Shown one piece after another: positions 14,831-53,037 of a DNA stretch of 64,000 nt. The notes under the pieces were generated by a model. The model worked only from the letters and a program-made list of their open reading frames with translations, did not search any database and was not told the DNA's origin. Location of the stretch: positions 1,536,001 through 1,600,000 of the forward strand of contig OY970173.1 of the NCBI GenBank assembly GCA_963707635.1, read 5' to 3'. The DNA comes from Candidatus Latescibacterota bacterium (GTDB lineage: Bacteria; Krumholzibacteriota; Krumholzibacteriia; WVZY01; JAKEHA01). Each line of letters starts with the position of its first letter. Position 1 is the first letter of the stretch. The position numbers and the translations under genes are program-made.

Positions 14831-15037
14831 TCCGGATAACTACGCGGGGCCTGTCACCGCTGGCGCGGGCCCTGTCGCCGATCCACCCCACGGGGCTTCG
14901 CCCGCGGGTCCTGTCGGCCAACAGCCCACTGCGGGCGAGCCTACCGCGCCTGCGCACTAGTAGTCTCGCCCTTGTGGGCGCCCGTTGGCCGCCACCCGCG
15001 GTTCACACGCCACCGCTTGTGCCCGGCCGGTCCGGAT
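14831..15037 (-). ncRNA. Candidate structured 5' leader or ncRNA (unknown family)
   Basis: ~100-nt interrupted hairpin 14902-15001, three GCGGGNCCTGTC repeats, TCCGGA at both ends, TATTAT -10 at 15046-15041. Confidence 0.45.
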
Positions 15038-40732: not shown

Positions 40733-42235
<1,503 letters not shown>

Positions 42236-42263
42236 GACGTGAATTGAAATGATCAGATGCACG

Positions 42264-42347
42264 CTCGTGCACTCCCCCTGTCGCCGTCCTCCCGCGCACA
42301 ATGTTGGCATGCGCGACTGCGGATTGGCTCCAGAGGGAGTGCACGAG
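42264..42347. repeat. Dispersed ~85-bp hairpin element, copy 1
   Basis: Near-identical to 52951-53037; terminal inverted arms CTCGTGCACTCCC/GGGAGTGCACGAG. Confidence 0.85.
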
Positions 42348-42382
42348 GTGCCGGGAGACGCAAACGCACGCATGAATCAGCC

Positions 42383-42901
42383 ATGACCATGAACCTCCGC
42401 TATTACGGAGATCCGATCCTGCGCAAGCGTGCCTCCGACGTGACCGCGTTCGACCGGGAGCTGCGCGACATCGTCGAGGGCATGACCGAGACCATGCGGC
42501 GGGAAGAGGGCGTGGGCCTGGCGGCGACGCAGGTCGGCCTCGACATGCGCCTGCTGGTCGCGCGCCGGATGGAGGACCCCGACGACGACGAGGCCGAACC
42601 CATCGTGCTGGTCAACGCCGAGGTCGTGGAGCGCTCGCGCGAAACGTGGGAGTACGAGGAAGGGTGCTTGAGCATCCCCGGCATTCGCGGCGACGTCACC
42701 CGGCCGCTGCGGGTCACGATTCGTTACCGCGATCTCGACGGCATTGAGCGCACGCTCGACGCCGAGGGGATGTTCGCCCGGGTGCTCCAGCACGAGATCG
42801 ACCACACCGAGGGGCGCTTGTTCATCGACTACCTCTCCGCCGCTGAGAAGGCGCTGCTCAAGCCGCGTCTCAAGAAGCTCGCCGACCGCCTGTCCGGCTA
42901 G
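42383..42901 (+). CDS. def: Peptide deformylase
   Basis: GVGLAATQVG, EGCLSIPG, QHEIDH motifs. Confidence 0.97.
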   Translation: MTMNLRYYGDPILRKRASDVTAFDRELRDIVEGMTETMRREEGVGLAATQVGLDMRLLVARRMEDPDDDEAEPIVLVNAEVVERSRETWEYEEGCLSIPGIRGDVTRPLRVTIRYRDLDGIERTLDAEGMFARVLQHEIDHTEGRLFIDYLSAAEKALLKPRLKKLADRLSG

Positions 42902-51019: not shown

Positions 51020-52852
51020 CTACCAGGTCGCGGGAATCACGCGGAGCACTTCCTCCCACGTCGTCTTGCCAGCCAGGAGCTTTCCCGTTGCGTTGCTCAT
51101 GAGCGGTTCCGCTCCGTCGCGGCGGACGGCCTGCACGATGTCGGCTTCGTCGGCGCCGTCGCGGATCATCACGCGCACGCGGTCGCTGATCTCCACGACC
51201 TCGAAGGCGGCGGTGCGGCCGAAATAACCCGTCCGCCGGCACTTCTCGCACCCCGCTCCGCGCACGACCCCGGACCGGTCCAGCGCCGGGTCGCTGATGC
51301 CCAGGAGCTGCGCCGTCTCGTCCGTCAGTTCGGCGCTCTCCGCGCACGCCGGGCACACGACGCGCAGCAGACGCTGCGCGATCAATCCAATCACCGTCGA
51401 TGCAATCAGGAAGCGCTCGATCCCGAGGTCGGTCAGGCGCGTGATGGCGCCGATCGCGGTGTTGGTGTGGAGGGTCGAGAACACCAGGTGCCCGGTCAGC
51501 GCGGCCTGGACGGCGTAGCGTGCGGTCTCGGAGTCGCGAATCTCGCCGACCATGATGATGTCCGGGTCCTGGCGAAGCACACTGCGCAGCGCGTTGGCGA
51601 ACGAGATCCCCACCGATTCCTGCACCGCGATCTGGTTGAACGGCTCGTGCACCATTTCGATCGGGTCTTCGATGGTGATGATGTTGACCTCCGGTGAGGT
51701 GATGCACTGGAGCGACGAATACAGCGTCGTGGTCTTTCCGCTTCCGGTCGGCCCCGTCACCAGGATGATTCCGTGGGGTCTCCGGAGCAGGCGCTCATAA
51801 GAGGCCCGCTGCGTGGGGGTGAACCCGAGCGCCTGGACGTCCTGCAGCAGGATGGTGGGGTCGAAGATGCGGATCACCAGCTTCTCGCCGAACGCGACCG
51901 GCACGGTCGACACGCGCAGCTCGACCTCCGCCTCCTTGTGGGCGGTCTTGATGCGCCCGTCCTGCGGGCGCCGCTTCTCGGCGATGTCGAGGCGCGCCAT
52001 GATCTTCAAACGCGAGACGAACGACGGGTAGACCTGCCGGGGAATCGAATAGGTGTCGTGCAGGCGCCCGTCGATGCGCAGGCGCACGATCGAGCGTTCC
52101 CGCTTGGGTTCGATATGGATGTCGCTCGCGCGCTGTTCGAAGGCGTACTGCAGGAGCAGGTCCACGGCGCGGACGATGTGCTGGTCGGAGCTGCTGGTCT
52201 CCTCGTTGACGCCGATCTCGACCAGCTGTTCGAGGTTGCCGAGGTCGACCGAGGCCAGGCGCTGCTTCTCCGCTTTCTGCATGCTGCGCTCGAAGGCGAA
52301 CAGCTCGTTGATGGTCTTGAGGATCTCCGCGCGCAGGCCCAGCACGGGCTCGACGCGGAACCCGGTGGTGTGTTCGATGTTGTTCAGCGCCGCGCGATCA
52401 AACGGATTCACCATCGCGACGGTGAGATACGGTCCGTCGAGACGGATCGGGACGATCAGATGTTTCTGGGCAAACGGTTTGGAGACGATGGCCGCGAGCG
52501 CGCGCACGTCGAGCTTCAGCGGGTCGATCTTCGCGAACGCGGTCCCGGTCGCCTCGCCGAAATGCCGGCAGACTTCCTCTTCGTCGAGGCACTCGCGGCG
52601 CGGGTTGGTGCTGGGAAACTTGAAGGCCGCGATGACTTCGAGCGGGGAAGGATTACCGCCGAGTCCGCGCTCGCGCCACGCGGCGATCATGGCCGCGAGG
52701 CGCGCTGCCCCCTGCGTGCGCACGACGGCAGCCTGACCGGCGTCCAGGATATTGCGCTCCACCAGGAGCGCGGTCACGCGCTCGAGGTCGAACGCGTCGG
52801 CCCGGCGCGCGGGAAGGCCCGGAGCGGGCGGAGTCTTGGGAGTCGTACTCAT
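51020..52852 (-). CDS. GspE/PilB family secretion or pilus assembly ATPase
   Basis: ASDIHIEP, PQDGR, GPTGSGKTT, TIEDP, LRQDPDIIMVGEIRD, GHLVFSTLHTN, CPAC/CEKC zinc motif. Confidence 0.95.
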   Translation of the reverse strand: MSTTPKTPPAPGLPARRADAFDLERVTALLVERNILDAGQAAVVRTQGAARLAAMIAAWRERGLGGNPSPLEVIAAFKFPSTNPRRECLDEEEVCRHFGEATGTAFAKIDPLKLDVRALAAIVSKPFAQKHLIVPIRLDGPYLTVAMVNPFDRAALNNIEHTTGFRVEPVLGLRAEILKTINELFAFERSMQKAEKQRLASVDLGNLEQLVEIGVNEETSSSDQHIVRAVDLLLQYAFEQRASDIHIEPKRERSIVRLRIDGRLHDTYSIPRQVYPSFVSRLKIMARLDIAEKRRPQDGRIKTAHKEAEVELRVSTVPVAFGEKLVIRIFDPTILLQDVQALGFTPTQRASYERLLRRPHGIILVTGPTGSGKTTTLYSSLQCITSPEVNIITIEDPIEMVHEPFNQIAVQESVGISFANALRSVLRQDPDIIMVGEIRDSETARYAVQAALTGHLVFSTLHTNTAIGAITRLTDLGIERFLIASTVIGLIAQRLLRVVCPACAESAELTDETAQLLGISDPALDRSGVVRGAGCEKCRRTGYFGRTAAFEVVEISDRVRVMIRDGADEADIVQAVRRDGAEPLMSNATGKLLAGKTTWEEVLRVIPATW

Positions 52853-52950: not shown

Positions 52951-53037
52951 GCCTCGCACGCTCCCCCGTCGCCGTCCTCCCGCGCACAATGCTGGTATGC
53001 GCGACTGCGGATTGGCTCCGGTGGGAGCGCACGAGGC
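52951..53037. repeat. Dispersed ~85-bp hairpin element, copy 2
   Basis: Near-identical to 42264-42347, with pairing-compatible substitutions. Confidence 0.85.

Follow-up and report, generated by a model that had tools for sequence, protein, structure and literature searches.

The two hairpins found in the 64,000-nucleotide stretch of DNA analysed here (the window) belong to a family of palindromes that is dispersed over the genome, inverts in place, nests within older copies of itself and keeps a conserved core between arms that differ from copy to copy. On balance, we favour reading these hairpins as a non-autonomous element folded in single-stranded DNA, whose core would be nicked by a putative, probably host-encoded nuclease and whose freed end would prime copying from an arm or from another copy. 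The host, a member of Krumholzibacteriota, is represented by one 3.2-Mb contig with 66% GC and 96% completeness. Both hairpins are present where an earlier note on this DNA had placed them, in the following settings:

42259–42351, minus strand: copy 1, a subtype-A hairpin (covariance-model match at 42261–42350, minus strand, E = 5.9e-7)
42259–42280: left arm of the closing stem of copy 1, its inner part conserved in subtype A and its outer part specific to this copy
42281–42330, minus strand: conserved core of copy 1, comprising internal loops rich in purines, in which G·A pairs occur in tandem, a helix of alternating GC and a terminal loop that varies
42331–42351: right arm of the closing stem of copy 1, from the fold
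52951–53037, minus strand: copy 2, a subtype-A element, from the fold and a model match
41927–42235, plus strand: yajC, the host gene upstream of copy 1 (TIGR00739, above cut-off)
42383–42901, plus strand: def, encoding peptide deformylase, downstream of copy 1
51020–52852, minus strand: host gene for a GspE/PilB-type ATPase, with copy 2 in the divergent gap before it

We refer to the minus strand of the window as the folded or R strand and to its complement as D. The two copies are 89% identical over 85 nt (BLASTN, E = 3e-25), and the base differences pointed out previously, an A-T to G-C swap and CTG/CAG versus CCG/CGG, are all in the sequence, as are two plus-strand C/A oppositions of copy 2, which on the minus strand read as G-U. 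Tandem G-A pairs and a partly paired GGAGGA are likewise present in the sequence and fold. Measured against shuffled sequences, RNA folding z-scores are -9.1 (copy 1) and -7.3 (copy 2) on the minus strand and -5.5 and -3.9 on the plus strand; the corresponding DNA values are -6.5 and -4.4 on the minus strand and -5.1 and -2.7 on the plus strand. The GGAGGA is not a ribosome-binding site, because in copy 1 it is antisense and in copy 2 some 120 nt separate it from the start codon.

Two further observations concern other parts of the window. The tgt gene at 40733–41759 (plus strand) is apparently split across two frames, possibly by a frameshift or an assembly error, and the 23S rRNA gene contains a Group I intron at 2472–3124 (plus strand; Rfam RF00028) with an ORF of 138 amino acids inside it at 2682–3098.

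The hairpin had been thought to be present twice; genome-wide BLASTN gives 23 copies of its subtype (A), and an iterated profile search extends the family to 73 copies (A 23, B 20, C 20, D 10). According to our own gene calls (2692 genes), 70 of the 73 lie outside genes. Convergent gaps are enriched (19 of 63 occupied gaps versus 67 of 916 gaps of at least 120 nt, p = 1e-8) and divergent gaps are depleted (5 of 63 occupied gaps, p = 3e-4). Most copies sit just behind stop codons, in either orientation; among the 65 with a stop codon within 400 nt, 49 start no more than 25 nt from it. The hairpins have a median length of 94 nt, fall between 88 and 101 nt in 59 of 72 cases and begin with GG in 37 of 72. 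Judged by eye from their N-termini, the neighbours of all 73 copies are ordinary host genes, none with a transposase-like start. Single-strand DNA transposons usually show a replichore orientation bias, and none is seen among the 73 copies (40:33).

Each element is a rod. A stem of about 16–20 bp closes it, its internal loops are rich in purines and contain tandem G·A pairs, and it further has a helix of alternating GC and a terminal loop that varies. The ends vary, with no conserved terminal tag and no conserved flank seen. The small plus-strand stem once suggested for the loop is not kept, as the loops of the 23 copies differ freely from one another, the most frequent one ending in TTGAAAT. 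In 27 copies of subtypes B, C and D, 16 of 16 outer pairs change on both sides and the inner helices are nearly invariant. The 23 subtype-A sequences, which are 17 of the genome's 23 copies plus six from relatives (one of these six consisting of the core alone), have covarying pairs at 11 of 17 outer positions versus 1 of 13 inner ones. Stem identity is about 0.4 between copies of subtypes C and D, and subtypes A and B share the stem only in its inner part. On a mixed-subtype alignment RNAalifold returned only five pairs, because subtype A is out of register there.

Movement of the element is recorded in close relatives. The gap between yajC and def is 147 nt here and 12–34 nt in 16 of 16 same-genus genomes, which represent the empty site of copy 1; BLASTN found no subtype-A element in any of 16 congeners. 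A metagenome scan yielded 37 loci, 35 of which map to this genome at 82–96% flank identity and correspond to 32 distinct elements. Twenty-two of these are orthologous A copies, 14 of them flipped and eight unflipped, and the 10 others occupy sites that in this genome hold remnants, an element of another subtype or a different insert. Copy 2 itself is flipped, with a changed outer stem, in two close relatives (L160 and L166). At another locus (L165) an arm mismatch flips together with the core, indicating that the whole hairpin inverts. Taken alone, flips could also be a passive outcome of long inverted repeats.

Elements of subtypes A and B that are adjacent have the same mutual orientation in 21 of 21 cases, counted on rows that include re-sequenced contigs, with their R strands outward. 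At two loci (L177 and L178) a complete doublet lies in opposite orientation within the outer arms of an older doublet, and partial nesting of doublets is seen at four more (L158, L167, L173 and L192). The remnants left behind are polar: with identical contigs merged and two full copies, one internal match and two palindromic re-matches dropped, 21 distinct remnants keep the R-strand 3′ arm versus one that keeps the other end, plus one other-end case at L171. Their breakpoints cluster near CGCG, with 10 of 14 B remnants stopping at positions 25–29 and four of seven A remnants at position 40; truncated remnants at other sites stop at the equivalent of position 42296/42297 of copy 1. Newly inserted copies begin exactly at the complement of the R-strand 3′ end and continue the remnant strand. 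The remnant arms are unlike those of the adjacent full copy (L158 and L177), and L158 and L184 have one doublet junction in common at different sites; the new copy therefore came from elsewhere, which points to copying between sites. Together with the empty orthologous site, the flips, nesting and subtype swaps in close relatives support the earlier suggestion of a non-autonomous mobile palindromic element. That suggestion had come with a proposal to look for a cognate transposase or RAYT and for target-site duplications: RAYT and Y1 were not found in this genome, and no duplication is visible by eye in the flanks, where the metagenome relatives provided no clean empty/filled pair from a near-identical strain.

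The origin of the arms is clearest in elements reduced to a minimal core of 23 nt, which occurs six times in 4 of 208 genomes of the phylum. In two of these genomes (G061 and G078; L235 and L236) the arms reach about 90 bp, and the far one repeats, in inverted orientation, the final codons of the gene upstream, tracking each species' own sequence of that coding end. Arms are thus demonstrably built or kept by copying at related loci, as template switching does. According to the available text of 10.1101/2023.04.19.537475, template switching yields such hairpins and inversions in one step. With arms that arise or persist in this way, covariation in the stem does not by itself prove selection on RNA. 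The alternative offered in the earlier note, a new structured RNA motif, is not borne out: covariation lies nearly all in the outer stem, whose arms are copied at related loci, the folded strand is independent of the mRNA strand, and minimal forms carry DNA-type triloops.

The family extends through the order. Of 30 relatives, 22 are matched at E = 1e-3 by a covariance model built on subtypes B, C and D, and they represent both families of the order; at E = 1e-6 the model also matches 12 of 120 further genomes of the phylum, 11 of them within the order; the best matches have a nearly invariant core in common across two families. Among 40 related loci, 24 are labelled Candidatus Krumholzibacteriia, 12 "uncultured bacterium" and one Latescibacteria, the remaining three being without a model match. 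Phage, plasmid and viral collections gave no match to the element.

Copies recur in several species, in either orientation, in gaps of the ribosomal operons (rpoA-rplQ, before rpsH, and rpsJ-rplC; G000:C1:257020, 265642 and 272022, with L097, L111, L113, L125, L149, L155 and L219, genes being named from protein sequences). Across the genus, stems at the same site have a mean identity of 0.50 versus 0.39 for random pairs, and cores 0.72 versus 0.71, the same-site means resting on 15 of 18 printed pairs that are not independent of one another, with three that contained one false match dropped. Cores within one genome are closer, at 0.84. Cores hence follow the genome and stems follow the site. 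In seven of the same 15 pairs, the three false-match pairs again being dropped, the elements of the two species are in opposite orientation. Persistence at a few ribosomal-operon sites across the genus may reflect a benefit to the host.

Two genomes of the host's taxonomic family (G017 and G018, L041–L055) contain a modular, three-armed repeat of 150 nt with a similar tip and a variable closing stem of the same kind, giving 48 and 8 matches. In G018 it often lacks the central hairpin, and some copies have the hairpin doubled. Its kinship to the hairpin family is uncertain because the covariance model has no match in G018.

Which strand folds had previously been considered unsettled. G·T oppositions in the variable part of the stem number 44 on R versus 17 on D (p = 7e-4), and this bias, like the model matches, identifies the folded strand as the minus strand of the window. 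The ratio is 21:4 where the mRNA is D, 8:5 where it is R and 9:7 in convergent gaps, the bias being significant in neither of the latter two. Ordinary 3′ hairpins of the genome, 119 of which served as a control, have their G·T oppositions predominantly on the mRNA strand (94:23). Wobble pairs track the strand of the element even against the mRNA, and the fold is therefore a property of the element rather than of the host transcript.

These data bear on the reading of the hairpins as an RNA structure selected by the host at the 3′ ends of its transcripts, acting as a processing site, stabiliser, pause or protein-binding site, with flips and perfect stems as passive by-products of template switching. 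Such a role would suit the location of the copies, directly after stop codons and in gaps between convergent genes, as well as a core that hardly varies across two families, strong predicted folds, and ribosomal-operon sites common to species across the genus. The orientation of the copies speaks against it, since the same site holds both orientations in different species and, in co-directional gaps, the mRNA corresponds to the folded strand in only 19 of 46 copies. Moreover, the wobble bias runs against the mRNA strand, unlike that of ordinary 3′ hairpins, a T-tract (at least five T) is found next to just 3 of the 72 copies, neither copy 1 nor copy 2 has a called terminator, and the yajC-def gap of congeners is without the element. 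We consider a host-selected 3′ RNA structure quite unlikely.

Whether DNA or RNA folds is a separate matter. Tandem G·A and G·U pairs fit both equally, and one RNA sequencing run, consisting of assembled contigs without strand or end information, gave no depth over the element. The tips of the six minimal cores are GCA (three), GAA, GGA and AAA, and five of the six fit GCGNAGC. This motif is an exceptionally stable DNA mini-hairpin whose RNA counterparts are much less stable, as given in the available part of PMC13037366. GNA triloops occur in the mini-forms and in a second repeat family; they are not proof of DNA because the tip of subtype A is different. By analogy with such mini-hairpins, our interpretation leans to folding as single-stranded DNA rather than RNA.

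The second hairpin repeat family is unrelated in sequence and is represented in the window at 14843–14990 (plus strand). Its copies start with CGCGGGTCCTGTC and end with GCCACCCGC, are nearly all intergenic and have about 65 exact starts genome-wide, one of them just beyond the end of the window (G000:C1:1600011). The commonest tip is GCGAAGC (9 loops in 55 folds). Remnants of 13–25 nt precede full copies directly, and at several sites second-family remnants abut copies of the family to which copies 1 and 2 belong.

Profile searches for a mobilising enzyme covered Y1, RAYT, RT, IS110, Y2/IS91, TnpB, GxxExxY, DUF559 and GIY-YIG. The Y1_Tnp profile (PF01797) is matched in none of 19 family genomes, including this one, with one weak match in 31 genomes, and the RAYT model NF047646 in none of five. 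IS110 and Y2/IS91 are absent here and were each detected in only one relative (G017 and G022, respectively), no TnpB scored over the cut-off, and GxxExxY was found in none of 31 genomes. This genome has two full-length tyrosine recombinase matches plus one fragment. Among the 31 genomes, DUF559 occurs only in this one, as a single two-frame, apparently frameshifted gene (G000:C1:3198817–3199127, L243) with no element beside it; we take the inverted repeat upstream of this gene, with ends GTTAGGC...GCCTAAC, to resemble an attC site. GIY-YIG proteins are encoded in 30 of 31 genomes, in UvrC-length and small stand-alone forms. The small form is widespread in the order and is not flanked by the element; a test for inverted repeats around its gene covered 1 of 25 loci. 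Model R1 detected no element in 32 loci around candidate enzymes. Seventeen long repeats (at least 250 bp) exist in the genome, all local or two-copy, with no dispersed multi-copy long repeat. Since no enzyme was found, the cutting step is purely what we infer, as are the nuclease itself and the choice of DNA over RNA.

Another reading is that the repeats are left-over substrates of a conventional REPIN/TIRtron- or MITE-type system, and that its HUH (Y1) or other transposase is lost, missing from the assembly or only a transient visitor. A length of about 100 bp, an intergenic 3′ position, enrichment in convergent gaps and inverted doublets all match REP/REPIN behaviour as described in the available text of PMC3733652, where CGTC REPs are likewise reported without a dedicated transposase, and the relatives are fragmented MAGs, which often lose transposase genes. 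The enzyme searches weigh on the other side: PF01797 is absent here and from 18 family members, NF047646 from all five genomes searched, and a one-contig, 96% complete genome is without any dispersed multi-copy long repeat. Besides, the layout is the reverse of a REPIN, conserved at the centre and variable at the ends, and a REPIN population that loses its RAYT is reported to decay (10.1101/2021.07.10.451892, available text), whereas copies of the present family are intact and turning over. A conventional system deprived of its transposase is thus unlikely.

Movement via RNA was also considered, in the form of a SINE-like element whose folded-strand read-through transcripts would be copied into a nicked resident copy by target-primed reverse transcription. 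Three features are compatible with it, namely the exact start of new copies at the complement of the folded-strand 3′ end in continuation of the remnant strand, the fixed orientation of doublets, through which a transcript in either direction has a folded-strand copy at its 3′ end, and the tight length together with the frequent GG start. Reverse transcriptase (PF00078), however, is absent here and from the six most copy-rich relatives (G001, G002, G012, G015, G019 and G022), being present in 5 of 31 genomes, and no element lies near any of six RT loci. The triloops of the mini-forms are of the DNA type as well. We regard a SINE-like route as very unlikely.

For the element folded as single-stranded DNA, which we prefer, the following steps may be envisaged. 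The G·A-rich core would fold in single-stranded DNA, and a putative structure-specific nuclease, probably encoded by the host, would nick the folded core and release a free 3′ end. This end would prime copying from the other arm or from another copy, by template switching or target-primed insertion. Such copying could invert whole elements, give each copy perfect arms of its own, substitute new doublets for old copies and homogenise cores throughout a genome. Copying would continue only for cores that retain the mismatched fold, and this would keep the core conserved across the order.

A bolder proposal, which we put forward tentatively and consider doubtful, is that these hairpins form an unrecognised class of transposase-free, self-targeting DNA elements, in which the conserved G·A-mismatch core, folded in single-stranded DNA, would recruit a housekeeping structure-specific nuclease and the nick would prime template-switch synthesis, with flips, arms built from neighbouring DNA and new copies pasted into old ones as its products. 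If true, this would account for the continued mobility of about 150 hairpins, belonging to two families, in a genome without a detectable insertion sequence.

Several other identities were considered and rejected. The note's author had not recognised the hairpin as a known riboswitch, REP, attC or IS end, and Rfam gave no match at gathering or E-value thresholds, the best overlap having E = 6.1. Integron attC sites carry conserved RYYYAAC/GTTRRRY boxes at the stem base and are accompanied by an integron integrase; here the stem base is variable and AAC lies in the terminal loop. An intrinsic terminator does not agree with the T-tract and terminator-call results given above. Insertion into pre-existing terminators is contradicted by the yajC-def gaps of congeners, which are short and without a long stem, and by the wobble bias against the mRNA. 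Membership in an RT-driven class of retroelements (group II intron, retron or SINE-like) was rejected because PF00078 is absent here and no element is adjacent to RT elsewhere. Resemblances to sigma-54, anticodon-loop, T-loop, SRP, k-turn, twister, dif and HhaI sites were dismissed since the consensus or the variants do not fit. No description of this hairpin family was found in the literature, of which supplements, such as that of PMC2864571, could hold related motifs; the available text of PMC2864571 lists repeat-like RNA motifs in Rfam, none of which matched the element.

The 23-nt minimal core, the defined folded strand, the clustered breakpoints and a near-closed genome in which no transposase was found provide testable handles on this family. 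It also offers a caution for RNA discovery, in that very strong stem covariation can arise from DNA copying between arms and not from selection on RNA.

Comparison with known systems places the family close to several mobile palindromes. REPINs with RAYT (Bertels and Rainey; 10.1101/2021.07.10.451892, available text) are similarly about 100 bp, extragenic, palindromic, present in many copies, long-lived in one lineage and arranged in inverted doublets; they have conserved REP ends around a variable spacer, whereas in the present family conservation is central and variation lies in the closing stem, and they possess a RAYT, whereas neither RAYT nor Y1 was found in 19 family genomes. GTAG and CGTC REPs, BIMEs and TIRtrons, as treated in the available text of Di Nocera 2013 (PMC3733652), likewise lie downstream of genes, in unidirectional and convergent gaps, and form pairs in opposite orientation, and CGTC REPs also have no known transposase. 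Those REPs, however, measure 20–40 bp and end in a GTAG or CGTC tag, unlike the present rods of about 94 bp with internal G·A loops and no conserved tag. Bacterial MITEs such as ERIC, YPAL, Correia/NEMIS, RUP and bcr1 (same source) resemble the family in being non-coding, gene-adjacent long hairpins of 70–300 bp, but their terminal inverted repeats are conserved in sequence and read by a transposase, whereas those of the present family vary between copies. Template-switch mutations at quasi-palindromes (10.1101/2023.04.19.537475, available text) account for perfect stems made in one step, loop inversions and inverted copies of flanks, as in G061 and G078 and in the flips; template switching alone leaves unexplained the dispersal to dozens of sites, the conserved mismatched core and the polar breakpoints. 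How REP-like repeats without a RAYT originate and persist is an open question, stated for CGTC repeats in the available text of PMC3733652. The element is likely a REP/REPIN-like mobile palindrome without the usual transposase, behaving like REPs, REPINs and BIMEs and departing from their definition in its untagged ends, its reversed layout and its lack of a RAYT in the genomes searched.
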